A stretch of DNA of 64,000 nucleotides from Stenotrophomonas sp. (GCF_036662295.1 NZ_JAVWXA010000002.1:23446-87445), one strand, 5' to 3'. Shown: positions 30,785 to 46,395, counted from the stretch's first letter. Notes: generated by a model from the sequence alone, not told the origin. A program made the numbers and translations.

Positions 30785-30897
30785 CTGCGCGATTGATTTC
30801 TCGGATTGCGTTGTTGGGATCCCAGCCAGCCCCGCCGTTCCCTTTTATCGTTCAATCGTTGCCCGGCGGTTTGTGTAGCCGCGCAGAGCAGATGCCC

Positions 30898-31155
30898 ATG
30901 AGCAATGACAGCCTCGTCGTGCGCACGCCCCACCAACTCGGGGCATTGATGCGTGCGTTTCGCAAACAGGCCGGTTTCAGTCAGGCGGCCCTCGCCGAAC
31001 GGCTGGGGGTCTCGCGCCAGGCCATCACCGCCTTGGAGCGTGAACCCGAATCCGCCACCTTTGAGCGGCTCATGAAGGTGTGGGCCGTGCTGGGTCTGGA
31101 GGTGTCGCTCCAGCGCGCCACTGGGCATACCCAACCGTTGGACATGGAGTGGTAG
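30898..31155 (+). CDS. hipB: HipB-like XRE HTH antitoxin
   Basis: LMRAFRKQAGFSQAALAERLGVSRQAITALE; C-terminal EW; 3 nt upstream of hipA. Confidence 0.85.
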   Translation: MSNDSLVVRTPHQLGALMRAFRKQAGFSQAALAERLGVSRQAITALEREPESATFERLMKVWAVLGLEVSLQRATGHTQPLDMEW

Positions 31156-31158
31156 CAG

Positions 31159-32484
31159 ATGGCCGAGCTGAAGGTCTGGATGAACGGCGTCGAGGTGGCG
31201 ACCTGGTGCGAGCGTTCCACCGCGCCGGCGCAACTGACGTACGCATCGTCCTGGCTCGCCTCGGCACTGCCTCGCCCCCTGTCATTGTCGCTGCCGCTGC
31301 TGCCCGCCGGGGCGAGCCACCGCGGGCAGGCCGTCTCGGACTATTTCGACAACCTGCTGCCTGACAACAGCGACATCCGCAATCGCCTGCGCGACCGCTT
31401 CCGCACGCAGAGCGCGGGTACATTCGATCTGTTGCAGGCCATCGGCCGCGATTGCGTCGGTGCCGTGCAGCTGCTGCCGCCAGGCCTTGCCCCCGTCGAC
31501 CTGCACAGCATCCAGTACCGGGCGCTGTCAGACGCGGAGGTCGCCGATGTGCTGCGGGGCGTCACTGCCGTGCCGGTACCGGGTTCGCCACGGCGCCCGG
31601 ACGACGACTTCCGCATCTCGATCGCCGGCGCGCAGGAAAAAACCGGCCTTCTTCAGCACGATGGCCGTTGGTGCCTGCCCACGGGTAGCACGCCGACCAC
31701 CCACATTCTCAAGCTGCCGCTCGGCCTGGTGGGCAACATGCGTGCAGACATGCAGCTCTCGGTGGAAAACGAGTGGCTCTGCATGCAGCTCATCGGCGCG
31801 TTCGGCATCCCGACCGCCAGCACCGGAATGGGCCGCTTCGAGGACCAGCGCGCGCTCATCGTTGAACGCTTCGACCGGCGTCTGGCGCGTGATGGCCAGT
31901 GGTGGCTGCGGCTGCCCCAGGAAGACATGTGCCAGGTGTTCGGTCTTCCCAGCTCGAAGAAGTACGAGGCCGATGGCGGGCCCGGCATGCTGGAGATCCT
32001 GGAACTGCTGAGGCAGTCCAGCCGTGCAGAGGACCGCGAACACTTCTTCAAGACACAGCTGCTGTTCTGGATGCTGGCTGCCACTGACGGCCATGCCAAA
32101 AACTTCAGCGTGCACCTCGACGCCGGCGGCGGGTTCCGGCTCACACCGGTTTACGACGTGCTGTCGGTGTACCCGATCCTGGGCCGTGGACCGGGAAGGC
32201 TCGATCCGCACGATGCGCAGTTGGCGATGTCGGTGCGCGGCAAGAACCGCCACCGCACGTTGCTCGGCATCCGCCGCCGACACTGGAACGAGACGGCGCG
32301 TGCTGCGGGGATTGCCGCCGGCGCCGAACCGTGGATCGACGACCTGCTGGCGCGGGTGGAGCCGGCGATCATGCGCGTGGCCGCAACACTGCCTGCCGAC
32401 TTCCCCGTGCAGGTGGCAGACCCCATCTTCCAGGGCCTTCGCAAGGCGGCCACGCGGTTGGCCTCCCAGTCCAGCGATGGCTGA
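31159..32484 (+). CDS. hipA: HipA-family serine/threonine kinase toxin
   Basis: YFDNLLPD, ISIAGAQEK, THILK, QEDMCQ, DGHAKNFS, PVYD. Confidence 0.95.
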   Translation: MAELKVWMNGVEVATWCERSTAPAQLTYASSWLASALPRPLSLSLPLLPAGASHRGQAVSDYFDNLLPDNSDIRNRLRDRFRTQSAGTFDLLQAIGRDCVGAVQLLPPGLAPVDLHSIQYRALSDAEVADVLRGVTAVPVPGSPRRPDDDFRISIAGAQEKTGLLQHDGRWCLPTGSTPTTHILKLPLGLVGNMRADMQLSVENEWLCMQLIGAFGIPTASTGMGRFEDQRALIVERFDRRLARDGQWWLRLPQEDMCQVFGLPSSKKYEADGGPGMLEILELLRQSSRAEDREHFFKTQLLFWMLAATDGHAKNFSVHLDAGGGFRLTPVYDVLSVYPILGRGPGRLDPHDAQLAMSVRGKNRHRTLLGIRRRHWNETARAAGIAAGAEPWIDDLLARVEPAIMRVAATLPADFPVQVADPIFQGLRKAATRLASQSSDG

Positions 32485-33248: not shown

Positions 33249-34877
33249 GTGCAACGCCGTGAGTTTCTGACGCTGTCTGGCATGGGCCTGGCTGGCCTGA
33301 TGCTGCCGCACACCCGCCTGATCGCCGCCGAGCAGCTGCTCGAGCCGGGCGATGCGGTCGCCAACCGGCGGCTGGCCGAGGCCGCGCTGGACGCGGCCAG
33401 GCGGGCCGGTGCCAGCTACTGCGACGTGCGCATCGGGCGCTACCTCAACCAGGCGGTGATCACCCGCGAGGCACAGGTACAGAACGTCACCAACAGCGAA
33501 TCCTCGGGCATCGGCATCCGCGTGATCGTCAACGGGGCGTGGGGCTTTGCCGCCACCCACCAGCAGACCCCGGCCGCGGTACAGGCCACCGTGGCCCAGG
33601 CCGCGGCCATCGCGCGTGCCAACGCCGGCATCCAGCTGCGGCCGGTGCAACTGGCCCCGGTGCAGGGCGTGGGCGAGGTGAGCTGGAAGACGCCACTGGT
33701 CAAGAATGCGATGGCGGTCCCGATCCAGGACAAGGTGGCGCTGCTGCTGAGCGTGAATGCCGCCGCGCTCGATGCCGGCGCGGACTTCATCAACTCCACG
33801 CTGTTCCTGGTCAACGAGCAGAAGTACTTCGCCTCCAGCGATGGCTCGTTCATCGACCAGGACGTGCACCGGATCTGGCTGCCGTTCACCGCCACCGCCA
33901 TCGACAAGGCCAGCGGCAAGTTCCGCACGCGGGCCGGGCTGTCCTCGCCGATGGGCATGGGCTACGAGTTCCTCGACGGCGACGCCCGCGGCAAGGTCGC
34001 CCTGCCCGGTGGCCTCACCGCCTACCGCGACTCCTACGATCCGGTGGAGGATGCCATCGCCGCCGCGCGCCACGCCCGCGAGAAGCTCAAGGCGCCCTCG
34101 GTCAAGCCCGGCAGGTACGACCTGGTGCTGGACCCGTCCAACCTGTTCCTGACCATCCACGAGAACGTGGGCCACCCGCTGGAGCTGGACCGCGTGCTGG
34201 GCTATGAGGCCAACTACGCCGGCACCAGCTTCGCCACGCTGGACAAGCGCGACGCCGGCTTCCGCTGGGGCAGCGAGCGGGTCAACTTCTTCGCCGACAA
34301 GACCGCGCCCGGCAGCCTGGGCGCCGTCGGCTATGACGACGAGGGGGTCAAGACCCGGCGCTGGGACCTGGTCCGCGACGGCATCCTGGTCAACTACCAG
34401 GCCACCCGCGACGAGGTGCACCTGCTGGGTGAAACCCGGTCGCACGGCTGCAGCTACGCCGATTCGTGGTCCAGCGTGCAGTTCCAGCGCATGGCCAACG
34501 TGTCCCTGGCGCCGGGCAAGGCGCCGCTGAGCGTGGCGGACATGATCAAGGACGTGGAGAACGGCCTGTACATCCACGGCCGCGGCTCGTACTCGATCGA
34601 CCAGCAGCGCTACAACGCGCAGTTCGGCGGCCAGTTGTACTACCAGATCAGGAACGGGCAGCTGGCCGGCATGGTCGAGGATGCGGCCTACCAGATCCGC
34701 ACGCCGGAGTTCTGGAACGCCTGCAGCGCGATCTGCGATGAGCGCGACTTCCGCTTCGGTGGTTCGTTCTTCGATGGCAAGGGCCAGCCGGGCCAGGTCT
34801 CGGCGGTCTCGCACGGTTCCTCGACCAGCCGTTTCGACGGCATCAACATCATCAACACCGCGCGCAGCCTGGGATGA
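33249..34877 (+). CDS. tldD: TldD-family metalloprotease, paralogue 1, Tat signal
   Basis: QRREFL Tat motif; IHENVGHPLE (HExxxH); FFDGKGQPGQ...VSHG. Confidence 0.9.
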   Translation: MQRREFLTLSGMGLAGLMLPHTRLIAAEQLLEPGDAVANRRLAEAALDAARRAGASYCDVRIGRYLNQAVITREAQVQNVTNSESSGIGIRVIVNGAWGFAATHQQTPAAVQATVAQAAAIARANAGIQLRPVQLAPVQGVGEVSWKTPLVKNAMAVPIQDKVALLLSVNAAALDAGADFINSTLFLVNEQKYFASSDGSFIDQDVHRIWLPFTATAIDKASGKFRTRAGLSSPMGMGYEFLDGDARGKVALPGGLTAYRDSYDPVEDAIAAARHAREKLKAPSVKPGRYDLVLDPSNLFLTIHENVGHPLELDRVLGYEANYAGTSFATLDKRDAGFRWGSERVNFFADKTAPGSLGAVGYDDEGVKTRRWDLVRDGILVNYQATRDEVHLLGETRSHGCSYADSWSSVQFQRMANVSLAPGKAPLSVADMIKDVENGLYIHGRGSYSIDQQRYNAQFGGQLYYQIRNGQLAGMVEDAAYQIRTPEFWNACSAICDERDFRFGGSFFDGKGQPGQVSAVSHGSSTSRFDGINIINTARSLG

Positions 34878-34934
34878 ACCTGTCCCGGGCTGCGCTCGTT
34901 TTCCCGCCCCGCCACACCGACGTGGAGAGCTGCC

Positions 34935-36569
34935 TTGCAACGACGTGACTTCCTCGCCCTCACCGGGCTTACCGCAGGCGGCCTGATCGTGCCGTCGTTC
35001 TTCGGCAAGGCCATCGCCGCCGAGCAGCTGCAGAGCACGCTCGACCTGGGCCTGAAGAAGCGCCTGGCCGACGCCGCGCTGGCCGCTGCCCGCCAGGCCG
35101 GGGCCACCTACTGCGACGTGCGCATCGGGCGCTACCTGCGCCAGTTCGTGATCACCCGCGAGGACAAGGTGCAGAACGTGGTCAACACCGAGTCCACCGG
35201 CGTGGGCATCCGCGTGATCGTCAACGGCGCCTGGGGCTTTGCCGCCACCAACGCGCTGGGCACCGCCGACGTGGCGCGCGCCGCGCAGCAGGCCGCGGCC
35301 ATCGCCAAGGCCAACGCCGGGGTGCAGACCGCGCCAGTGCAGCTGGCTGCCGCGCCGGGCGTGGGCGAGGTGAGCTGGAAGACGCCGATCCGCAAGAACG
35401 CCATGGACGTGCCGGTGAAGGAAAAGGTGGACCTGCTGCTGGACGTCAACGCGGCCGCGTTGGCCGCCGGCGCCAGCTTCGTCAATTCGATGCTGTTCCT
35501 GGTCAACGAGCAGAAGTACTTCGCCAGCACCGACGGCTCCTACATCGACCAGGACGTGCACCGCATCTGGGCGCCGATGACCATCACCGCCATCGACAAG
35601 GCCAGCGGCAAGTTCCGCACCCGCGAAGGGCTGTCCGCGCCGATGGGCATGGGCTACGAATACCTCGACGGCGCCGCCGCCGGCAAGGTGCTCACCCCCA
35701 ACGGCGTGGTCAACTACAGCTCCTCCTACGACATGAAGGAAGATGCGATCGCCGCGGCCCGGCAGGCCCAGGAGAAGCTCAAGGCGCCGTCGGTGAAGCC
35801 GGGCAAGTACGACCTGATCCTGGACCCGTCGCACACCTGGCTGACCATCCACGAATCGATCGGCCACCCGCTGGAGCTGGACCGCGTGCTCGGCTACGAA
35901 GCCAACTACGCCGGCACCAGCTTCGCCACGCTGGACAAGCGCGAGCAGCACTTCCAGTACGGCAGCGACAAGGTCAACATCTTCGCCGACAAGACCCAGC
36001 CGGGCAGCCTTGGCGCGGTGGCCTACGACGATGAAGGCGTGAAGTGCAAGCGCTGGGACCTGATCACCGACGGCAAGCTGGTGGACTACCAGACCATCCG
36101 CGACCAGGCCCACATCCTGGGCAAGACCGCTTCGGACGGCTGCTGCTATGCCGACTCCTGGTCCAGCGTGCAGTTCCAGCGCATGGCGAACGTGTCCATG
36201 GCCCCGGGCAAGACGCCGCTGAGCGTGGCCGACATGGTCAAGGACGTGGAGAACGGCATCTACATCATCGGCGACGGTTCGTTCTCGATCGACCAGCAGC
36301 GCTACAACGCGCAGTTCGGCGGCCAGCTGTTCTACGAAATCAAGAACGGCAAGATCACCCGCATGCTCGAGGACGTGGCCTACCAGATCCGCACGCCGGA
36401 ATTCTGGAATGCCTGCACCGCCGTGGCCGATGAGCGCGATTACCGCCTGGGCGGTTCGTTCTTCGACGGCAAGGGCCAGCCGGGCCAGGTCTCGGCGGTC
36501 TCGCATGGCTCGTCCACCGCGCGCTTCAACGGCATCAACGTCATCAACACCGCCCGCAGCCTCGGCTGA
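34935..36569 (+). CDS. tldD: TldD-family metalloprotease, paralogue 2, Tat signal
   Basis: QRRDFL Tat motif (TTG start, RBS GGAG); IHESIGHPLE; FFDGKGQPGQ. Confidence 0.9.
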   Translation: MQRRDFLALTGLTAGGLIVPSFFGKAIAAEQLQSTLDLGLKKRLADAALAAARQAGATYCDVRIGRYLRQFVITREDKVQNVVNTESTGVGIRVIVNGAWGFAATNALGTADVARAAQQAAAIAKANAGVQTAPVQLAAAPGVGEVSWKTPIRKNAMDVPVKEKVDLLLDVNAAALAAGASFVNSMLFLVNEQKYFASTDGSYIDQDVHRIWAPMTITAIDKASGKFRTREGLSAPMGMGYEYLDGAAAGKVLTPNGVVNYSSSYDMKEDAIAAARQAQEKLKAPSVKPGKYDLILDPSHTWLTIHESIGHPLELDRVLGYEANYAGTSFATLDKREQHFQYGSDKVNIFADKTQPGSLGAVAYDDEGVKCKRWDLITDGKLVDYQTIRDQAHILGKTASDGCCYADSWSSVQFQRMANVSMAPGKTPLSVADMVKDVENGIYIIGDGSFSIDQQRYNAQFGGQLFYEIKNGKITRMLEDVAYQIRTPEFWNACTAVADERDYRLGGSFFDGKGQPGQVSAVSHGSSTARFNGINVINTARSLG

Positions 36570-36590
36570 CCGGTCAGGAGCCTTTACACC

Positions 36591-37925
36591 ATGAGTATCT
36601 TCACCGAAGCACAAGCCAAGGCCATCCTCGACAAGGTCATCGCGCTGTCCAAGGCCGATGAATGCACCGCCGTGCTGGCCGGTTCCATCGAAGGCAACAT
36701 CCGCTTCGCGCTCAACAACGTGTCCACCAGCGGCATCGTGGACAACACCGAACTGGCCGTCACCGTGGCCTTCGGCAAGCGCGTGGGCACCGCCTCGATC
36801 AACGCCTTCGACGATGCCGCGCTGGAACGGGTGGTGCGGCGCGCCGAAGACCTGGCGCGGCTGGCCCCGGAGAACCCGGAGTTCATGCCCGCCATCGGCA
36901 AGCAGGCCTACACGCCCAGCCCGACCTTCAGCGCCTCCACCGCCGCCATCGACCCGGCGTTCCGTGCCAAGGTCGCCGCCGACTCCATCGCCCCGTGCCG
37001 CGGCAACGGCCTGATCGCCGCCGGCTTCCTGGAAGACGGCCAGGGCTTCTATGCCACCGCCAACAGCAACGGCAACTTCGGCTACCAGCGCAGCACCAGC
37101 TTCGATTACACCTGCACGGTGCGTACCGAAGACGGCCGCGGTTCGGGTTGGGTCGGCCGCAACCTCAAGGACGCGGCGGATTTCAAGGCCGACCAGGACA
37201 TCCGCATCGCCATGCGCAAGGCCACCGAATCGGCCGAGGCCAAGGCGCTGGAACCGGGCAAGTACACGGTCATCCTGGAACCGGCGGCCGCCGCCGGCCT
37301 GATCAGCTTCATGATGAACTTCTTCAGCGCGCGCTCGGCCGATGAAGGCCGCAGCTTCCTGTCCAAGAAGGGCGGCGGCAACAAGCTCGGCGAACTGGTC
37401 TACGACCCGCGCGTGAACATGCATGCCGACCCGTGGCACCCCGAGGCCCCGGTCCTGCCGTGGGACAACGAGGGCATGCCGCGCACCAAGCTGCCGATCA
37501 TCGAGAACGGCCGCATCGCCAACCTGGAGTATTCGCGGTTCTGGGCCAACAAGCAGGGCAAGACGGCCAACGCCACCCCGGGCAACCTGCTCATGAGCGG
37601 TGGCGAGAAGAGCACCGCCGAGCTGGTGCGTGGCACCCAGAAGGGCATCCTGGTCACCCGCACCTGGTACATCCGCATGGTCGATCCGCAGACCGTGCTG
37701 CTCACCGGGCTGACCCGCGACGGCACCTTCTACATCGAGAACGGGCAGATCAAGTACCCGGTGAAGAACTTCCGCTTCAACGAGTCGCCGGTGATCATGC
37801 TCAACAACATCGAGGAGCTGGGCAAGCCGGTGCGCGTGGCCGGTGACGAGTCGAGCTTTGTGATGATGATCCCGCCGATGAAGCTGCGCGATTTCACCTT
37901 CACCTCGTTGTCCGACGCGGTCTGA
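36591..37925 (+). CDS. tldE: TldE/PmbA-family partner subunit (no signal peptide, no HExxxH)
   Basis: PGKYTVILEP, WDNEG, LTGLTRDGTFYIENG, NFRFNES. Confidence 0.85.
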   Translation: MSIFTEAQAKAILDKVIALSKADECTAVLAGSIEGNIRFALNNVSTSGIVDNTELAVTVAFGKRVGTASINAFDDAALERVVRRAEDLARLAPENPEFMPAIGKQAYTPSPTFSASTAAIDPAFRAKVAADSIAPCRGNGLIAAGFLEDGQGFYATANSNGNFGYQRSTSFDYTCTVRTEDGRGSGWVGRNLKDAADFKADQDIRIAMRKATESAEAKALEPGKYTVILEPAAAAGLISFMMNFFSARSADEGRSFLSKKGGGNKLGELVYDPRVNMHADPWHPEAPVLPWDNEGMPRTKLPIIENGRIANLEYSRFWANKQGKTANATPGNLLMSGGEKSTAELVRGTQKGILVTRTWYIRMVDPQTVLLTGLTRDGTFYIENGQIKYPVKNFRFNESPVIMLNNIEELGKPVRVAGDESSFVMMIPPMKLRDFTFTSLSDAV

Positions 37926-37932
37926 TCGATCG

Positions 37933-38634
37933 ATGGACCGCGCGCAGTTCCTGCGCCTGATGCTGGGCAGTGCCGCCTTCGCCGCACTGCCCTCGCTGGC
38001 GCGCGCCCAGGCCGGACGCTACGATTTCTGGTTCACCCGCCTGAAGTACGACTCCGGCGACTGGGACGTGGATGCGCGCATGCCCTCGAACCTGATCACC
38101 TCGCTGATCGACTACACCACCCTGCGCGTGGACCCCACCGAGCATGTGATCGCCCTGTCCGACCCGCGCATGCTGGAGGCCCCGTTCTGCTACCTGGCCG
38201 GGCACACGCTGGTGGAGTTCAACGCCGCCGAGCGGCAGAACTTCGTGCGTTACGTGCGTAACGGGGGTTTCGTGTTCGTCGATGACTGCAACCACGACAT
38301 CGACGGCCTGTTCGCCACGTCGTTCGAGGCGCAGATGCGCGCCTTGTTCGGCCCGGCCGCGCTGAAGAAGCTGCCCAACGGCCACGCGCTGTACCGCAGC
38401 TTCTTCCGCTTCCCCGAGGGCCCGCCGGCCACCGGGTTCGAGCTCAATGGCTGGGGCGACGACCTGGTCCACGACTATCTCAAGGGCATCGAGGTGGACG
38501 GACGCCTCGGCGTGCTCTACAGCAACAAGGACTACGGCTGCGAGTGGGATTACGACTGGCGCAACAAGCGTTTCCTGGCCGAAGACAACACCAAGTTCGG
38601 CGTGAACATCGTGATGTATGCGTTGAACAACTGA
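37933..38634 (+). CDS. DUF4159 family protein with Tat-like leader
   Basis: MDRAQFL...ARA leader; RLKYDSGDW, GGFVFVDDC, YSNKDYGCEW, GVNIVMYAL. Confidence 0.8.
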   Translation: MDRAQFLRLMLGSAAFAALPSLARAQAGRYDFWFTRLKYDSGDWDVDARMPSNLITSLIDYTTLRVDPTEHVIALSDPRMLEAPFCYLAGHTLVEFNAAERQNFVRYVRNGGFVFVDDCNHDIDGLFATSFEAQMRALFGPAALKKLPNGHALYRSFFRFPEGPPATGFELNGWGDDLVHDYLKGIEVDGRLGVLYSNKDYGCEWDYDWRNKRFLAEDNTKFGVNIVMYALNN

Positions 38635-38696
38635 CGTTTGCCCTACCCCTGCAGCCACGCCGGTCGTGGCGTTTCCCCCGATGATGCGAGCGTGCC

Positions 38697-39680
<984 letters not shown>

Positions 39681-39687
39681 GCCAGAG

Positions 39688-40590
39688 GTGAGCCAGCACG
39701 CCCCCATCGCGATTCCGGCCGAGGTGCGCAGCCGCCTCAAGGCACTGCGCCTGGTGCCCCGGCAGGCGCGCGGCGCGCACGGCATCGGCCAGCACGCCAG
39801 CCGCAGCCGCGGTGCCGGGCTGGAGTTCGCCCAGTACCGCGCCTACGAGCCCGGCGATGCCCTGCGCCAGATCGACTGGAAGCTGTATGCCCGCTCGGAC
39901 CGCTTCTTCGTGCGCGAGTCCGAACGCGAAAGCCCGATCACCACCTGGGTGCTGCTGGATGCCAGCGCGTCGGCCGCCCAGGCCGACCGCGCCCGCCCGG
40001 ACTGGTCGCGGCTGGACCACGCCTGCGCCACCGCGGCCTGCGTGGTCGAGCTGGCGCTGCAGCAGGGCGACCGCTTCGGCGCGATCGTGGTCAATGGCCA
40101 CGGCGTGCAGGTGGTGCCGGCCGGCACCGGCCCGCGCCAGCGCGACCGCGTGCACCTGCTGCTGCGCGGCGTGCAGGCGCACGGCGGCTGGCCGCCGCTG
40201 GACGCCCTGCGCCCGGTCTGGGAGCGCGTGCAGGCCGGCCACCTGCTGGTGGCGCTCGGCGATGGCTTCGATGAGGCCAACACCGTGTTGCTGGAGCGGC
40301 TGGCCGCTGCCCGCCGCGAGGTGCTGCAGGTGCAGTTGCTCAGCGCCGAGGAGCGCGATTTTCCGTTCGCGCAGGGCCATCGCTTCGAAGACCCCGAAAC
40401 CGGTGAGGCCCTGCTCGGCGACGGGCGCGCGATCCGCGACGGCTACCTGGCCCGGTTCGACCAGGCCCAGCGCGCGTTGCAGGCGCGCCTGCAGGCCGCC
40501 GGCATCGCCCATGCGCTGGGTTACCTGGACCAGCCACTGGATACGCCACTGGGCGTGCTGTTCGGCACGGGCCGCCGCGCATGGGCATGA
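39688..40590 (+). CDS. DUF58 (VWA-like) MoxR partner
   Basis: EFAQYRAYEPGD..RQIDWK; MIDAS-like DASAS. Confidence 0.92.
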   Translation: MSQHAPIAIPAEVRSRLKALRLVPRQARGAHGIGQHASRSRGAGLEFAQYRAYEPGDALRQIDWKLYARSDRFFVRESERESPITTWVLLDASASAAQADRARPDWSRLDHACATAACVVELALQQGDRFGAIVVNGHGVQVVPAGTGPRQRDRVHLLLRGVQAHGGWPPLDALRPVWERVQAGHLLVALGDGFDEANTVLLERLAAARREVLQVQLLSAEERDFPFAQGHRFEDPETGEALLGDGRAIRDGYLARFDQAQRALQARLQAAGIAHALGYLDQPLDTPLGVLFGTGRRAWA

Positions 40591-41711
40591 CGCTGCTGTT
40601 TCCGCTGGGCCTGCTGGCGCTGGCCGCGTGGTTGATTCCGCTGCTGGTGCACCTGGCCCGCCGCCAGCAGCTGGCACCGCTGCCGTTTGCGGCGCTGCGC
40701 TGGCTGCGGGCGCAGGCACGCCCGCGCCAACGCATCCGCCTGGACGAATGGCCGCTGCTGGTGGTGCGGCTGTTGCTGCTGGCGGCCCTGGCCCTGCTGC
40801 TGGCGCGCCCGGTGTTGCTCGGCGGCGATGGCGCTGCCCGCCCGGTGGTGGCGGTGGCCCCCGGCCTGCCACTGGACGCCGTGGGCGTGCTGCCGCGCGA
40901 TGCCGATGCGCGCTGGCTGGCCCCGGGCTTTGCCGCCCTCGATACGCCGGCGCCTGCCGCCGCGCAACCGTTGTCCAGCCTGCTGCGTGAGCTGGACCAG
41001 CAGCTGCCGGCCGGCGCGCCGCTGACCGTCTACCTGCCCGACCCGATGACCGGCGCCGACGGCGAGCGCCCGCGCCTGTCGCGCCCGGTGCAGTGGCGAC
41101 CGCTGGCACGCGAGGCCACGGCGCCGCCCGCGCCCGCATCCCGCGCGCCCCGGCTGCACCTCGGCGCACCGGTCGATGCGCCGGCGCTGCGCGTGCTCAA
41201 CGCCGTCCAGCAGGCCTGGCGTGGCCAGCCGCTGCCGCCGCCCGATGCCCGCGTGCCGGCCGAGGGGCAGATCGGGGTCTGGCTGTCGCCGGCACCGTTG
41301 CCGCCCCGCTGGCAGGCGTGGCTGCAGGCGGGCGGCACGCTGCTAGCCGCCCCCGGCGCCGACGCCGACGCGCGCGAGGCGGTCGTGGTCCTGCGCGACG
41401 CGCAAGGCCTGCCAGTGCTGCGCGAGCAGCGGGTCGGCCAGGGTCGGCTGCTGCGCTTCAGCGCGGCCCTGTCGCCGGCGCGGCTGCCGATCCTGCAGGA
41501 CGCCGATTTCCCGCGCCGGCTTGCCGCCTGCGTGCAACCGGTGGCCGCGCCGCAGTGGGTCGCCGCCGGCGTCCATGCACCGTTGACCGGCGCACGCGCA
41601 CCCGCGCCGCCACCACGCCCGCTTGCACCGTGGCTGCTGGTGCTGATCGTGCTGCTGTTCGCGCTGGAGCGCTGGCTGGCCACCGCCGCGCGCCGGGCAG
41701 GCAGCGCATGA
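40587..41711 (+). CDS. BatA-domain membrane protein
   Basis: LLFPLGLLAL...PLLVHL...PFAALRWL N-terminal double-TM motif; C-terminal TM with LERWL; ATGA overlap. Confidence 0.85.
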   Translation: MTLLFPLGLLALAAWLIPLLVHLARRQQLAPLPFAALRWLRAQARPRQRIRLDEWPLLVVRLLLLAALALLLARPVLLGGDGAARPVVAVAPGLPLDAVGVLPRDADARWLAPGFAALDTPAPAAAQPLSSLLRELDQQLPAGAPLTVYLPDPMTGADGERPRLSRPVQWRPLAREATAPPAPASRAPRLHLGAPVDAPALRVLNAVQQAWRGQPLPPPDARVPAEGQIGVWLSPAPLPPRWQAWLQAGGTLLAAPGADADAREAVVVLRDAQGLPVLREQRVGQGRLLRFSAALSPARLPILQDADFPRRLAACVQPVAAPQWVAAGVHAPLTGARAPAPPPRPLAPWLLVLIVLLFALERWLATAARRAGSA

Positions 41712-43864
41712 GCAACGCCGTGCACCGGGGCTGGCAGCGGGCGCGTCGCCGCGTCGTCGCGGCGACCTTGCTGGTGGCCGTTCCGCCCTGCCTCGCCGCC
41801 ACGGCCGTGGCCCTGCGCGTGGGCGGTTTCGACATCGCCACGGTGGTGCTGAGCGCCACCTTGCTGGCCACCGCCGCGCTCGCCACCTGGCGTGGCCGGC
41901 GCCTGGACCGGCACTGGCTGGTCCGGCAGCTGGACACCCACCCGGTGGCGCAGGACAGCGCGGACCTGCTGTTCGTCGGTGCCGCCACGCTCAACCCGTT
42001 GCAGCAGCGCCAGCAGGCCCGGGTGGAGGCCGCACTGCAGGCGCGCATGCCCGACCTGCGCCCGCGTTGGCCGCGCCGCGCGCTTGGCCTGGCCTGGGTG
42101 CTGGCGCTGGCCGTGACCGCGCTGGCGCTGGGCTGGCCGCGCGATCGCAGCCGCCCGGCCGGGCCGTCGCCGGCGGGTCCCGCCGCCGCCCACCCGGCGG
42201 CCCCGCCGCGCCTGCAGGCCACGCGCCTGGCCATCCGCGCACCGGCCTACACCGGCCAGCCCGAGCGCGTGCAGCACGGCCTGGACGCACGGCTTGCACA
42301 GGGCAGCCAGCTGCACTGGTCGCTGCACTTCAGCACCCCACCGCGCCAGGCCACCCTGCAGTTCCATGATGGTCGCCGCATCGCCCTGCAGCAGGACGGA
42401 CAGGCGTGGAGCGCGCGTGCCGTGATCGAACGCGCGGCCGTGTACCGCGTGGTCACCGAGCCGGCACTGCGCGACCCGCGTCTGTACCGCCTGGACGTGG
42501 TGCCCGACCAGCCGCCGAGCGTGCGCGTGCTGGTGCCGGACCGCACGCTGGTGCTGGCCACGCCCGGGCAGCGGCAGTGGGCGCTGCAGTTCGAGGCCAG
42601 CGACGACCACGGCGTGCAGGCGCAGGCGCAGCTGAAGATCACCCTGGCCCAGGGCAGCGGCGAGAACATCACCTTCCGCGAGCAGACCCTCACCCTGGCC
42701 GGCAGCGGCACGCCCACGCGCCGCCGCTTCGCGCACACCCTGGACCTGGCCGCGCTCGGTGCGCAGCCCGGCAACGATGTGATCGTGCAACTGCAGGTGC
42801 GCGACACCCACGCGCCCACGCCCCAGACCGCGCGCAGCAGCAGCGTGATCCTGCGCCTGCCCAGCCTCGAGCAGGTGCAGGGCGCCGCGCTGGAGGGCAT
42901 GGTCAAGAAGACGCTGCCGGCCTACTTCCGCAGCCAGCGCCAGATCATCATCGATGCCGAGGCACTGATCCGGCTGCGTCGGCAGTTGCCGCCGGACACG
43001 TTCACCCAGCGCGCCGATGCGATCGGCGTGGACCAGCGCATCCTGCGCCTGCGCTACGGCCAGTTCCTGGGCGAGGAAAGCGAGGGCGCGCCCAGGCCGC
43101 CGCCCACCGACGCCCCTTTGCCCACGTCCGACACCCCGGTCCCGCGCGACGACGGCCATGACCACGCGCCCGCCGCCACCTCGGCCGGCCATGACGACCA
43201 CGACCATGGCACGCCCGCCACCGACGGTGCGCCGGTCTTCGGCAGCGCCACCGACGTGCTGTCCGAGTACGGCCATACCCACGACCATGCCGAGGCGGCG
43301 ACGCTGCTCGACCCGCAGACCCGCGCCACGCTCAAGGCCGCGCTCGACCAGATGTGGTCCTCCGAAGGCGAGCTGCGCCAGGGCCGGCCCGAGGCCGCCC
43401 TGCCCTATGCGAACAAGGCGCTGGCCTTCATCAAACAGGTCCAGCAGGCCGAGCGCATCTACCTGGCGCGGGTCGGCCCGGAGCTGCCGCCGATCGACGA
43501 GAACCGCCGGATGGGCGGCGACCGCACCGACCTGGGCAGCCGCACCCTGGCGCTCGCGCCATTGCCCGCGCCGGACCCGGCCATCGTGGCGGTGTGGCAG
43601 CAGCTGGGCACCGGCGGCGATACGCCAGACCTGGATGCGTTGGGCACGTGGCTGGACCGTCACCAGGCGCGCCTGGCCGATCCGCTCAGCCTGGCCGCGA
43701 CCGTGGAAGCGCTGCGCATGGACCCGACCTGCAGCGACTGCCGGCAGGCATTGCGCGCGCAGTTGTGGCGCGCGTTGCAGCGCCCGCTGCCGCAGGTGAC
43801 CCGACGCGCCGCCCCGGACCGCATGGGCCAGGCCTACCTGGATGCACTGGAGGGGCGCCCGTGA
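41708..43864 (+). CDS. DUF4175-like membrane protein with His/Asp-rich loop
   Basis: Three N-terminal TM helices, PDQPPSV, FEASDDHGV, FRSQRQIIID; ATGA overlap. Confidence 0.7.
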   Translation: MSNAVHRGWQRARRRVVAATLLVAVPPCLAATAVALRVGGFDIATVVLSATLLATAALATWRGRRLDRHWLVRQLDTHPVAQDSADLLFVGAATLNPLQQRQQARVEAALQARMPDLRPRWPRRALGLAWVLALAVTALALGWPRDRSRPAGPSPAGPAAAHPAAPPRLQATRLAIRAPAYTGQPERVQHGLDARLAQGSQLHWSLHFSTPPRQATLQFHDGRRIALQQDGQAWSARAVIERAAVYRVVTEPALRDPRLYRLDVVPDQPPSVRVLVPDRTLVLATPGQRQWALQFEASDDHGVQAQAQLKITLAQGSGENITFREQTLTLAGSGTPTRRRFAHTLDLAALGAQPGNDVIVQLQVRDTHAPTPQTARSSSVILRLPSLEQVQGAALEGMVKKTLPAYFRSQRQIIIDAEALIRLRRQLPPDTFTQRADAIGVDQRILRLRYGQFLGEESEGAPRPPPTDAPLPTSDTPVPRDDGHDHAPAATSAGHDDHDHGTPATDGAPVFGSATDVLSEYGHTHDHAEAATLLDPQTRATLKAALDQMWSSEGELRQGRPEAALPYANKALAFIKQVQQAERIYLARVGPELPPIDENRRMGGDRTDLGSRTLALAPLPAPDPAIVAVWQQLGTGGDTPDLDALGTWLDRHQARLADPLSLAATVEALRMDPTCSDCRQALRAQLWRALQRPLPQVTRRAAPDRMGQAYLDALEGRP

Positions 43865-45693
43865 CCGCCCACCTTGCCCTTGCCCTGGCGCTGCTGGCCA
43901 TCGTGCTGGTCGGCAGCGCGCGCCTGTGCTGGCCGCGTGGCGCGGCTGCGCGTGGCGGCGTAACGATGGCGCTGCTGCTGGTGCTGCAACTGGCCAGCGC
44001 CACGCTGCTTTACTTCACCCTGCTGCCGCCGCACGTGCCGGTGGCAGCCGGCGAACTGACCGTACTCACCGCCGCGGCCGATGCCGCGCGCCACGCACCG
44101 TCGCCGGCGGCGAATACGATCGCGTTGCCCGAGGCCACCGCCGCGGCCGGCATCGCCACCGCCCCGGACCTGGCCACGGCGCTGCGCCAGCACCCCGGCA
44201 CGCGATCCCTGCAGGTGGTGGGCGATGGCCTGCCCGCCCGCGATCGCGACACCGCGCTGCCCGCAGAGGTGCGCTGGCAGCCGTCCGCGCCGCCACGCGG
44301 TTGGGTCGCGCTGACGCCGCCGGCCCCCACCGCACCGGGCAGCAGCTTCGCGGTGCAGGCACGCGCGCAGGGCGTGGCCAACGGCAGCGCCGAACTGCTC
44401 GATCCCGCCGGCCAGGTGGTGGACCGCCGCCCGCTTGCCGCCGATGGCAACGTGCAGCTGGAGGGCGTTGCCCGGGCCAGCGGCCGCAGCGTCTTCCAGG
44501 TGCGGCTGCTCGATGCCGGCCGCCACGCCGTGGACACCTCGCCCGTGCCGCTGCAGACGCTGGAACAGCCGGCGCCGCGCGTGCTGATCCTCGGCGGCGC
44601 GCCGGGGCCGGAGCTGAAGTACCTGCGCCGCTGGGCCGCCGATACCGGGCTGGCCGTGCATGCCCAGGCCAGCGCCGGTGGCGGGGTGTCGCTGGGCGAT
44701 GCGCCGCTGGCGCTCACTGCGGCCTCCCTGGCCGCCACCGACGTGCTGATCCTGGACGAACGCAGCCTGGCCGGCCTCGGCGCGGCCCAGCGCGGCCTGG
44801 TCCAGCAGGCGCTGCACGATGGCCTGGGCGTGGTGGTGCGCAGCACCGGCCCGCTCGGCGAAGGCGCGCGGCAGGCCCTGCAACGCTGGGGCCTGGCGGC
44901 CAGCGGCACGTCCTCGACCACGCCGCTGCGCTTGCCGGCCGATCCCGACCCGGCGCTGCTGCAGGCACGCCGCGGCCCCTCGCGCGCGGCCGTGCCGCCG
45001 ACCGCGGCGATCGATGCGGCCGACCGCGCCTCGCACGCGGCGGACGTGCCGGTGCTGGCGCAGTTCGCACTGCGCGCCGCCGACACGACGCCACTGCTGC
45101 ACGACGCGGCCGGGCAGGCGGTCGGTGGCTGGCGCCGCGTCGGCCGCGGCCGCCTGGCCCTGCTGCCGGTCACCGACAGTTACCGCCTGGTGCTGGCCGG
45201 GCGCGAGGATCGCCACGCCGAACTGTGGAGCGCGGTGCTCGCCCACCTGGCCCGGCCCGTGCCGGCCGCACCGGCCGCGCGCCTGGACACGGCCACGCCG
45301 TGGGCAGGCGAACGCGTCGCGCTGTGCGGTGTGGCCGAAGGCGCGCAGGTGGACGACGCAGCCGGCGCGGCGGTGCCGCTGCGCATCGATCCGGCCACCG
45401 GCAGCGCGGCCTGCGCGGCCTACTGGCCGGCGCAGGCCGGCTGGCACCAGTTGCGGCAAGGCACGCAGACCCAGGCGTTCTACGTGTACGCGCCCGACCA
45501 GGCGCGGGCGATGCATCGCCAGCAGCTGCGCGAGGCGATGGCGCAGCAGGCGCTCGAGGGGGCCGGCACCGCGCAGGCCCGCGAGGCCAGCCGGCCCGGT
45601 CCGCGCTGGCCGTGGTGGCTGGCCTTCCTGGGCGTGGCCGGGTTGCTGTGGTGGCTGGAGCGCCGGCGCCCGCCCGTGCGGCCCGCGCCATGA
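43861..45693 (+). CDS. Membrane protein with Ig-like and GATase1-like domains (last gene of the Tld/MoxR operon)
   Basis: GTGA overlap; two N-terminal TM; RVLILGGAPGPELKYLRRW; C-terminal TM ending WWLERR. Confidence 0.65.
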   Translation: MTAHLALALALLAIVLVGSARLCWPRGAAARGGVTMALLLVLQLASATLLYFTLLPPHVPVAAGELTVLTAAADAARHAPSPAANTIALPEATAAAGIATAPDLATALRQHPGTRSLQVVGDGLPARDRDTALPAEVRWQPSAPPRGWVALTPPAPTAPGSSFAVQARAQGVANGSAELLDPAGQVVDRRPLAADGNVQLEGVARASGRSVFQVRLLDAGRHAVDTSPVPLQTLEQPAPRVLILGGAPGPELKYLRRWAADTGLAVHAQASAGGGVSLGDAPLALTAASLAATDVLILDERSLAGLGAAQRGLVQQALHDGLGVVVRSTGPLGEGARQALQRWGLAASGTSSTTPLRLPADPDPALLQARRGPSRAAVPPTAAIDAADRASHAADVPVLAQFALRAADTTPLLHDAAGQAVGGWRRVGRGRLALLPVTDSYRLVLAGREDRHAELWSAVLAHLARPVPAAPAARLDTATPWAGERVALCGVAEGAQVDDAAGAAVPLRIDPATGSAACAAYWPAQAGWHQLRQGTQTQAFYVYAPDQARAMHRQQLREAMAQQALEGAGTAQAREASRPGPRWPWWLAFLGVAGLLWWLERRRPPVRPAP

Positions 45694-45708
45694 CCGCGGC
45701 GGCGCGGC

Positions 45709-46395
45709 TCAGCGCGCGGCGGGGTCGCGCCCGTACACGCCGTTGAAACGCACGTTCATGCCGCCGCATTGGCTGTTGTCCGAGACCACCAGGTAGTCGC
45801 CCAACCACTGCGCCTTCAGTTCGCAGGCCGCGTCATCGCTGTCCTTGAAATGCACGATCGCCCCGCTCGGGCGCGCGATCGCATCGATCTGCCCCAGGTT
45901 GGGCCCGTACGGGCGCTGCGGGGTGGGCCTGGCCGAGGGCCAGTAGGCCTCGCCGGTCACCGCGAGCTGGCCGTCCTGCACGCGCAGCAGCAACGTGTCA
46001 TCGCCATTGCGCCACTGCCCGGCCCACGCCTGCAGCGCCGGCGCACGCGCGACCGGCAACGGCTGCAGCCGCTGCGCCTCCACCCACCCGGCGCTGCCAC
46101 CGCCCTTGTTGGGATAGAAGGCGCACCGATAGCCCGCCTGCGCATAGCCGGTCAGCACCGTGTCGCCGCCCACCACATAGCTGCGCTGGCGGCACGCCGG
46201 CTCTCCTTTTGCGGGGCAGCCCTCGCTGTCGGCCAGCAGGTACAGGCGCGGGGTGCCGGTGACCTTGGCCAGCGCGAAATCGCCCTGCTCGGTCGGAAAA
46301 CCGCCGTTGCGACAGCTGCGCGGATCCTGCGCGGCCTGCGCCGAGGCGGTGTCGCACAGGCTGGCCAGCGCCAGCAGGAAAAGGAAACGCATCAT
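45709..46395 (-). CDS. Exported hypothetical protein (SH3b-like N-half, six Cys)
   Basis: Signal peptide; YRCAFY...GWV; C-terminal LVVSDNSQCGGMNVRFNGVY. Confidence 0.65.
   Translation of the reverse strand: MMRFLFLLALASLCDTASAQAAQDPRSCRNGGFPTEQGDFALAKVTGTPRLYLLADSEGCPAKGEPACRQRSYVVGGDTVLTGYAQAGYRCAFYPNKGGGSAGWVEAQRLQPLPVARAPALQAWAGQWRNGDDTLLLRVQDGQLAVTGEAYWPSARPTPQRPYGPNLGQIDAIARPSGAIVHFKDSDDAACELKAQWLGDYLVVSDNSQCGGMNVRFNGVYGRDPAAR

Follow-up and report, generated by a model that had tools for sequence, protein, structure and literature searches.

Why should a metallopeptidase carrying twin-arginine translocation (Tat) signals be encoded next to a MoxR-type ATPase and a group of predicted inner-membrane proteins? 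The question is raised by a gene cluster of Stenotrophomonas sp. (NZ_JAVWXA010000002.1), studied here within a stretch of 64,000 nt that we refer to as the window. Positions 33249–45693 hold nine open frames arranged head to tail on the + strand: two TldD genes (tldD1 and tldD2), tldE, genes for a DUF4159 protein, a MoxR ATPase, a DUF58 protein and a BatA_N protein, and two further membrane-protein genes (genes 8 and 9). The initial annotation had described these as nine co-directional genes forming one unit, and all nine were indeed found open, on the + strand and at these coordinates; the conserved core, however, consists of eight genes, because tldD1 is present only in some genera. We find that, within one clade of Tat-TldD proteins, the TldD/TldE (TldD/E) unit and the MoxR unit are inherited together across several phyla, and we consider it probable that they are functionally coupled.

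Results

Linkage of Tat-TldD to the DUF4159-MoxR module

The family was sampled with one genome per genus (61 genomes), close Tat-TldD being defined by E < 1e-240. Tat-TldD was present in 29 of the 61 genus representatives, and a standalone DUF4159 was found in each of these 29 but in 0/32 of the rest. In those 29, the two genes lie on the same contig and the same strand, a few kb apart, and 20-kb stretches showed the order TldD-TldE-DUF4159-MoxR-DUF58-BatA_N-gene 8-gene 9 in every locus with enough contig. In a second sample, comprising 401 genomes of the phylum of the window organism, close Tat-TldD occurred in 8/401 genomes and was accompanied by the full module in 8/8. DUF4159 itself (Pfam) was detected in 85/401 genomes; in 77 it is part of open frames of ~790–1220 aa, and the eight short standalone copies belong to exactly the eight genomes with Tat-TldD. 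Genome G103 carries the standalone DUF4159 only, with no fused copy.

A scan of 185,579 species genomes with the Tat-TldD alignment returned at least 600 matches, of which the best 80 loci, with 65–97% identity, were examined. These come from Xanthomonadales, from Sphingobium, Caulobacter henricii, Erythrobacter and Brevundimonas, from Massilia, Duganella and Telluria, from Microbulbifer, from many Bacteroidota (Pedobacter, Spirosoma, Dyadobacter, Hymenobacter, Algoriphagus, Pontibacter, Christiangramia and others) and from one metagenome-assembled genome (MAG) of Planctomycetota. DUF4159 adjoins TldD/E in 64 of the 68 loci with enough flank, the lineages covered being Xanthomonadales, alpha-, beta- and gammaproteobacteria, Bacteroidota and the Planctomycetota MAG, and DUF4159, MoxR, DUF58 and gene 8 were all seen in 52 of the best 80. 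Of the four unlinked exceptions, three are additional TldD/E loci whose genomes have a linked locus elsewhere, and the fourth is a MAG without any. The link was also kept where the genes had been reordered: in L139 the module is divergent from DUF4159-TldD-TldE, and in L143 and L151 an inverted DUF4159 is followed by MoxR through gene 9 and then by TldD-TldE-TldD. It likewise survives amplification of TldD/E to as many as four pairs (Spirosoma, L128). In the Bacteroidota loci L128 (Spirosoma panaciterrae), L120 and L124, two to four tandem TldD-TldE pairs stand upstream of DUF4159.

The co-occurrence of Tat-TldD with DUF4159, MoxR, DUF58 and BatA expected by the initial annotation thus holds for the clade of the window (TldD of at least 64% identity), at 29/29 in the family, 8/8 in the phylum and 64/68 among the examined loci, but it is specific to that clade. 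Three facts argue against an accidental neighbourhood: phyletic coupling is perfect, the link outlasts rearrangement, and DUF4159 has a subfamily specific to this partner (see below).

Several loci carry inserts within the module. In L042, from one genus of the family, 7 kb between tldE and DUF4159 (L042:5100-12100) hold an ATP-synthase-like set (alpha/beta, gamma, b/delta), mostly on the opposite strand. The inserts were searched for a recurrent extra partner and yielded none, being heterogeneous (the ATP-synthase-like operon, a GH5 cellulase, one S41 peptidase, GNATs and Uma2). Of these, the S41 (C-terminal processing) peptidase is a single case: it has a PDZ domain and is found in Lacihabitans (L122:16279-17661), immediately upstream of DUF4159.

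Organization of the gene cluster

The features of the cluster, all on the + strand, are as follows (evidence in brackets).

33249..34877, +: tldD1, Tat-signal TldD paralogue of 542 aa, an optional member (Pfam PmbA_TldD domains 1–3, motifs, own paralogue clade)
34862..34895, +: terminator-like hairpin overlapping the tldD1 stop codon (folding, shuffle test)
34935..36569, +: tldD2, core Tat-signal TldD of 544 aa with a TTG start (Pfam, motifs, orthologues of 65–97% identity in at least three phyla)
36591..37925, +: tldE/pmbA-like partner, leaderless, 444 aa (PmbA_TldD_3rd 154 bits, HExxxH absent)
37933..38634, +: standalone DUF4159 of the TldD-linked subfamily, predicted to be exported, 233 aa (PF13709 184 bits, signal peptide, GATase1-like fold model)
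38697..39680, +: MoxR-type AAA+ ATPase, 327 aa, cytoplasmic (AAA_3 211 bits, AAA_lid_2 56 bits, bpMoxR, Walker motifs)
39688..40590, +: DUF58 protein (vWA-like) with DxSxS, cytoplasmic (PF01882 107 bits, DASAS, no leader or transmembrane segment)
40587..41711, +: BatA_N/TIGR02226 double-transmembrane protein with a periplasmic domain and a C-terminal transmembrane segment, no vWA (PF07584, TIGR02226 65 bits, Atlas BatA clusters)
41708..43864, +: gene 8, DUF4175-like membrane protein of 718 aa with three transmembrane segments, a large periplasmic part and a His/Asp-rich linker (ATGA overlap, transmembrane prediction, Atlas)
43861..45693, +: gene 9, membrane protein of 610 aa with two N-terminal transmembrane segments, Ig-like and GATase1-like periplasmic domains and a C-terminal transmembrane segment (GTGA overlap, AF2 model, AFDB clusters)

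The intergenic gaps are, in order, 57, 21, 7, 62 and 7 nt and give way to overlaps further downstream. The start of the BatA_N gene is more likely at 40587, which makes an ATGA overlap; PF07584 and TIGR02226 both begin at residue 3 of the longer open frame. Pfam and NCBIfam name seven of the nine genes directly; genes 8 and 9 obtain no family match of their own.

Family, motifs and predicted export of TldD and TldE

The products of the first three genes carry all three PmbA_TldD Pfam domains above cut-off, and the closest protein matches are TldD/PmbA of S. rhizophila (92–93% identity). They miss the NCBIfam cut-offs for the canonical TldD/PmbA equivalogs (128 vs 635, 73 vs 513 and 47 vs 438), and the genome also holds a canonical cytoplasmic TldD/PmbA pair. 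The HExxxH motif is confined to the two TldD copies, as HENVGH at 34158-34175 in tldD1 and HESIGH at 35850 in tldD2, and is absent from TldE. In both TldD copies, Asp (FFDGKGQ, 34767-34787 and 36459-36479) replaces the Cys metal ligand corresponding to E. coli Cys454, as judged from an alignment with the canonical TldD of the genus itself. Such an Asp-for-Cys variant has already been noted for some bacteria (PMC5810440). Other Tat-TldD clusters have either Cys or Asp at this third metal-ligand position.

Twin-arginine motifs directly follow the start codons of both TldD genes (RREFL, 33255-33269, in tldD1; RRDFL, 34941, in tldD2). The leader, consisting of RRxFL, a hydrophobic stretch and AIAAE, has the make-up of a Tat signal, and the same arrangement, beginning M-x-R-R-x-F-[LIV], was found in 48/48 TldD orthologues from the family and phylum-sample loci. 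Over all lineages of the 80 loci, the arginine pair was present in 138/143 TldD N-termini. TldE is different: neither an arginine pair nor a hydrophobic leader was seen in any of 105 orthologue N-termini (0/105), which start with MSIFTE or MPILTK, the mature fold following directly. The motifs quoted by the initial annotation, that is, the RRxFL leaders and HExxxH in both TldD copies and DASAS in DUF58, were each read in the translations.

On the basis of these leaders, TldD is predicted to be periplasmic. In E. coli, TldD and TldE form an obligate heterodimer that encloses the active site, and only this heterodimer is active (PMC5810440). Because TldD has the arginine pair, TldE is leaderless and the E. 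coli enzyme works only as the heterodimer, the simplest reading is that TldE would leave the cytoplasm by hitch-hiking on the Tat signal of TldD. The E. coli enzyme takes only unfolded peptide ends and cuts processively; it removes the leader of microcin B17 and degrades CcdA41 (PMC5810440).

Found in only some genera, and there in two different positions, tldD1 forms a separate clade in the tree and is, on account of this clade of its own, an old optional paralogue.

A TldD-linked subfamily of DUF4159

The DUF4159 protein of the window has a signal peptide ending ARA-QAG with a single Arg, and about a third of the family orthologues have an arginine pair in the leader. Its structural model (predicted local distance difference test, pLDDT, 79) best matches PDB entry 4I66 (Foldseek E 1.5e-11, TM-score 0.62/0.72; profile search E 6e-12), with weaker matches to gamma-glutamyl hydrolase, ThuA-like proteins, the glutaminase domain of CTP synthase and the GH42 middle domain. 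The modelled fold is thus of the class I glutamine-amidotransferase-like type.

All 65 TldD-linked DUF4159 proteins, from all lineages, share a signature composed of FVDDCNHD(I/V)DG, the insert ELNGWGDDLVHDYLKG and YGCEWDYD (65/65; in the window, DDCNHD at 38281-38298 and GCEWDYD at 38536-38556), in which Cys119, His121, His151, His180 and Cys203 are invariant. The signature is missing from 4I66, from the alphaproteobacterial fused domain and from the unlinked paralogue of a Pedobacter genome that also holds a linked copy. We regard it as a candidate catalytic or metal site. In the model, Cys119 sits after strand 114-118 and before helix 126-139, which is the place of the nucleophile in this fold, and the residue may serve in catalysis, bind a metal or form one half of a disulphide. 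In three Bacteroidota genomes (G460, G461 and G462), a second DUF4159 paralogue, also standalone (Pfam ~240 bits), lies apart from TldD/E.

Between Stenotrophomonas and Bacteroidota, DUF4159 and TldD have the two highest median identities (69% and 68%), followed by MoxR (57%), TldE (56%), DUF58 (31%), gene 8 (29%) and gene 9 (23%).

The MoxR ATPase, DUF58 and three membrane proteins

MoxR has Walker A (GAPGLGKT, 38838) and Walker B (LLLADE, 39027) motifs, and DUF58 has a DxSxS of the metal-ion-dependent adhesion site type (DASAS, 39958-39972); both proteins are devoid of a leader and of transmembrane segments. The BatA_N protein, in which the Arg-rich loop lies between its first two transmembrane segments, gene 8 and gene 9 each combine short Arg-rich loops or tails beside the transmembrane segments with one large domain on the opposite side. 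Because of the positive-inside rule as applied to these loops, the three proteins are predicted to reside in the inner membrane with their large domains in the periplasm. The BatA-type protein BB0173 agrees with this: it resides in the inner membrane, and experiments have placed its large domain in the periplasm (PMC5700661). The initial annotation had spoken of a trans-envelope complex; that part is not supported, as no outer-membrane gene was found in the cluster or in either flank and the three membrane proteins are of the inner-membrane type with periplasmic domains.

In Pfam and NCBIfam, the BatA_N protein matched only PF07584/TIGR02226 and no vWA domain. When it was compared by BLASTP with the fused alphaproteobacterial protein, the transmembrane region alone matched. 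Assignment of gene 8 is through relatives: the L060 orthologue scores 35.8 bits against DUF4175 (PF13779; cut-off 27.3) over part of the profile, the window protein itself gives no match, and Atlas clusters carry the name DUF4175. Gene 8 contains a His/Asp-rich low-complexity linker (43148-43315, with DDGHDH and GHDDHDH) and a conserved GHxHDxxEAATLLDP / GHTHDHAEAATLLDP motif. A similar His-rich segment is present in 13/25 distant orthologues, and the composition of these segments suggests metal binding.

For gene 9, a model computed with AlphaFold from 18 orthologues (pLDDT 86) matched AFDB clusters named "glutamine amidotransferase domain", "Aerotolerance regulator N-terminal" and VWFA proteins (E 1e-15 to 1e-21). 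Matches to the glutamine amidotransferase clusters have E 1e-17 to 1e-21 but TM-scores of only 0.3-0.4, and the match to ThuA only E 0.2. Against the PDB, Foldseek returned only low-TM-score multi-domain matches to glycosidases, and comparison of the gene 9 family with the alphaproteobacterial GATase1_like protein by hhalign was not significant (E 0.021, probability 2%).

Hairpin, base composition and expression

The hairpin between tldD1 and tldD2 (34862-34895) has a stem of 14-15 bp followed by TCGTTTTCCC. Its minimum free energy is -39.8 kcal/mol (z -4.06), and none of 200 shuffled sequences was equally good (0/200). Lying where the optional tldD1 gives way to the core operon, it may serve as a partial terminator or as an RNA-stability element. 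A sigma-70 promoter scan found zero sites across 14 kb and is uninformative on transcription units in such GC-rich DNA. The GC content climbs from ~0.66 to 0.75-0.78 near 39000 (moxR onwards, 39000-46000), alongside the fast-evolving membrane genes rich in Ala/Arg/Pro. We considered this rise as a sign of a foreign second half and rejected that explanation in view of the same gene order and conservation gradient in all relatives; the rise is probably not of foreign origin.

As no RNA run of the strain itself was found, expression was read from assembled RNA-library contigs of related organisms. In run X9, a contig of 3365 nt (depth 206, ~91% identical) spans the end of tldD2, tldE, DUF4159 and moxR, and neighbouring contigs have a depth of 41 over tldD1 and of ~19 over DUF58 and gene 8. 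Because the depth is uneven, the signal argues for RNA rather than contaminating DNA. The same depths give a hint of different expression levels for tldD1 and the distal genes, a point on which GC bias and the use of assembled contigs bar a firm statement. Two RNA runs gave contigs of 19–26 kb that possibly include DNA, and the RNA contigs of relatives as a whole are suggestive at most. A transcription break between tldE and DUF4159/moxR had been named in the initial annotation as grounds for abandoning its proposal; the relatives' RNA contigs run through these junctions with no such break.

Flanking genes

Upstream lie a toxin-antitoxin pair, formed by a hipB-like helix-turn-helix gene (30793-31155) and then a hipA kinase gene (31159-32484), and a divergent gene for a DUF938 methyltransferase; downstream is a convergent gene without family match. 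The flanks are not obviously related to the cluster, and no gene for a metal transporter or a metal regulator was found in or beside it.

Comparison with known systems

An alphaproteobacterium of the phylum sample (L154) has a four-gene operon encoding MoxR, DUF58, a 1001-aa protein running from BatA_N to DUF4159, and a GATase1_like protein, and one Atlas cluster also carries both BatA and DUF4159. We take the L154 operon to have the architecture of RL3499-RL3502. The latter is an operon of Rhizobium leguminosarum, reportedly described by Vanderlinde et al. in 2011 (J Bacteriol 193:2684). Judged through L154, the MoxR, DUF58, BatA_N and DUF4159 families recur in the window, with gene 9 as the putative GATase1-like member. 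The cluster in the window differs in that DUF4159 is a separate exported protein with the Cys/His signature, a DUF4175-like gene is inserted, and a Tat-signal TldD/TldE is attached. Insertions in RL3499 and RL3500 impaired growth on complex TY but not on minimal medium, and both were listed among envelope/periplasm genes (PMC5118466).

With the Bat (Bacteroides aerotolerance) operon, including its homologues in spirochaetes and Riemerella (PMC3557215, PMC5700661, PMC11834572), the window shares MoxR, DUF58 and proteins with the N-terminal double-transmembrane unit of BatA. Unlike these, its BatA_N protein is without vWA, and DUF4159, the DUF4175-like protein and TldD/E take the place of the remaining Bat genes; BatC/BatE-like TPR or BatD-like genes had no Pfam match in the nine genes or the flanks. 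E. coli TldD/TldE (PDB 5NJ5; PMC5810440) has in common with the window the three PmbA_TldD domains, HExxxH in TldD only and an inactive TldE partner, and 5NJ5 chain A was matched by phmmer at E 3e-16. It differs at the level of sequence (~24–28% identity), the window proteins having the twin-arginine leader and Asp for Cys454. Finally, Hoch_4089 of Haliangium ochraceum, the structural-genomics entry 4I66, has the same fold as the DUF4159 model but reads DSAEGA for DDCNHD and GGAF for GCEW and is without the NGWGDDLVHDY insert.

Full-text searches, also for TldD in Xanthomonas secretomes, brought up neither a description of the module nor a paper on TldD exported through Tat; for DUF4159, only the Pfam paper was found. 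We class the module as a variant of the Bat or RL3499-3502 type of MoxR envelope module, with a relocated protease from an already known family attached to it.

Discussion

A proposed composite periplasmic peptidase system

Considering the conservation of the linkage together with the domain content of the nine proteins, the explanation towards which we lean, if only slightly, is a composite system of the inner membrane and the periplasm assembled from two older units. In the first, similar to Bat and RL3499-3502, cytoplasmic MoxR and the DUF58 adaptor would act on the inner-membrane proteins BatA_N, DUF4175-like gene 8 and GATase1-like gene 9. BatA_N-type proteins are likely the direct clients of MoxR/DUF58, because they are conserved partners in every variant. 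The second unit, the TldD/TldE metallopeptidase, would fold in the cytoplasm and be exported through Tat as a heterodimer by means of the TldD signal alone. The soluble, exported DUF4159, which in this clade would have gained the invariant Cys/His site, most likely joins the two by docking on the membrane complex: that most alphaproteobacteria have DUF4159 fused to BatA_N suggests that it works on the BatA_N protein, and the exclusive association of the TldD-linked DUF4159 subfamily with TldD/E suggests a joint action of this subfamily and the peptidase.

In the cytoplasm, MoxR would then hydrolyse ATP and thereby alter the state of the membrane proteins, whose periplasmic domains, together with DUF4159, may hold or control the closed-chamber TldD/E or pass unfolded peptide ends to it, so that periplasmic or envelope polypeptides would be degraded or trimmed. 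The proposed chain thus leads from MoxR to DUF58, to the cytoplasmic loops of the membrane proteins, to their periplasmic domains, to DUF4159 and to TldD/E. The periplasm contains no ATP and TldD/E needs unfolded ends, and it is because of these two circumstances that we suppose the membrane complex to gate or feed the peptidase. Coupling of the two units as such seems to us probable; this particular mechanism of gating or feeding is put forward tentatively and, as formulated, is rather more likely to be wrong than right. Gene content, motifs, predicted topology, the linkage conserved over several phyla, the BatA_N-DUF4159 fusion elsewhere and the DUF4159 subfamily signature are what the sequences show; hitch-hiking export, physical docking, energy coupling and the nature of the substrate are steps that we infer, and a protease "assembled or fed" through MoxR, as the initial annotation words it, is purely conjectural.

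A number of observations weigh against this composite system. More distant Tat-TldD/E pairs (43–47% identity, on long contigs) stand alone, as do two distant pairs in the phylum sample, and most MoxR-DUF58-BatA_N-DUF4159 modules are without TldD/E, namely those of most alphaproteobacteria, in which DUF4159 is fused to the BatA_N protein. The alphaproteobacterial TldD of Sphingobium, Caulobacter henricii and Erythrobacter (L088, L095, L099 and L060) nests inside the Xanthomonadales clade; the module has therefore spread in part by horizontal transfer of the whole block, and many of the counted co-occurrences are not independent. The module is also dispensable, since 32 of the 61 family genera lack it entirely. 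Within the cluster, the hairpin divides tldD1 from the remaining genes, the depth in run X9 drops about tenfold past moxR, for which separate transcripts or GC bias are possible reasons, and the RNA contigs are no proof of a single transcript. Finally, all that the membrane proteins offer MoxR and DUF58 for contact is short loops and tails on the cytoplasmic side.

Alternative explanations

A stronger form of the proposal would make the system an energy-coupled periplasmic protease, in which MoxR, acting through DUF58 and BatA_N-type proteins, unfolds substrates and feeds them into the Tat-exported, self-compartmentalised TldD/E, and DUF4159 would be a new hydrolase of the Cys-dependent kind acting together with the peptidase; in this full form we think it unlikely. 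Alternatively, MoxR and DUF58 could serve as a cytoplasmic maturation factor that inserts metal into TldD/E, or assembles the heterodimer, ahead of Tat export, the membrane proteins not being clients of the ATPase at all. MoxR, DUF58 and the folding TldD/E would all be cytoplasmic at that stage, and export through Tat implies folding, and probably metal loading, beforehand. The arrangement would resemble other MoxR-vWA pairs that mature metalloenzymes. MoxR proteins have been described as chaperones that mature dedicated complexes (PMC3893208). Yet the set of MoxR, DUF58, BatA_N, DUF4159 and GATase1-like proteins occurs without TldD/E in 77 of the 85 DUF4159-bearing genomes of the phylum sample, which points to the membrane proteins as the conserved partners of the ATPase, and the distant Tat-TldD/E pairs mature without a MoxR neighbour. 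We accordingly judge a role limited to maturation quite improbable. In a further reading, gene 8 and the Cys/His site of DUF4159 bind metal and, under the control of MoxR, keep the Asp-liganded TldD loaded or buffer metal in the periplasm. It would account for the His/Asp-rich linker and GHxHD of gene 8 that recur in 13 of 25 distant orthologues, for the five invariant Cys and His residues of the TldD-linked DUF4159, for the arginine pairs in many DUF4159 leaders, which are reminiscent of cofactor-binding Tat substrates, and for Asp in place of Cys at the third metal-ligand position. A metal-handling device is nevertheless very improbable in our estimation, given that metal transporters and regulators are absent in and beside the cluster, that the His-rich linkers are variable and the pattern is missing in 12/25 orthologues, and that the Cys/His set of DUF4159 fits a catalytic site equally well.

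The precedent of microcin B17 and CcdA41 in E. coli (PMC5810440) raises the possibility that TldD/E is a dedicated processing protease that has one module component to trim, or else a secreted peptide encoded elsewhere. The very strong conservation of TldD and DUF4159 across phyla (medians of 68% and 69%) is in keeping with such a narrow task, but genes for precursor peptides, modification or exporters were linked in none of ~100 loci, and the fourfold amplification of TldD/E in Bacteroidota fits the handling of a broad range of substrates better than a single cut. We hold this narrow role to be as doubtful as a metal-handling device. It could also be argued that two unrelated systems are adjacent merely by common descent and block transfer: each unit occurs alone elsewhere, transfer of the whole block is evident, and a 7-kb insert separates tldE from DUF4159 in L042, with unrelated inserts in L122 and L128. 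Against mere co-inheritance, phyletic coupling in the family is perfect (29 vs 0), the link survives inversion and reordering in L139, L143 and L151, and the DUF4159 subfamily with its own signature occurs only beside TldD/E, the unlinked Pedobacter paralogue being without it; we find this the least credible of the explanations considered.

Implications

To our knowledge, TldD/E has been known only as a cytoplasmic enzyme. Modules of the MoxR-DUF58-BatA type (Bat, RL3499-3502) are widespread and have been connected with envelope, stress and virulence phenotypes since 1999, and we know of no client or mechanism for them. New here are the Cys/His signature of DUF4159, the consistently leaderless TldE, and tldD1 as an old optional paralogue followed by a hairpin. 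The module described above links MoxR-DUF58-BatA complexes to a concrete enzyme partner across hundreds of species (at least 600 matches in the genome scan), among them tractable hosts such as Stenotrophomonas, Xanthomonas, Caulobacter henricii, Massilia and Pedobacter. It offers an enzyme activity that can be assayed, a likely adaptor, DUF4159, with invariant residues that can be mutated, and a prediction on export in the form of Tat hitch-hiking by TldE. If the coupling is true, the old question of what Bat modules do would be open to ordinary knock-out, pull-down and peptidomics work. If the energy-coupled reading is true as well, the module would represent a previously undescribed answer to the lack of ATP in the periplasm, and the remodelling of periplasmic clients would explain the general role of Bat and RL3499-type modules.

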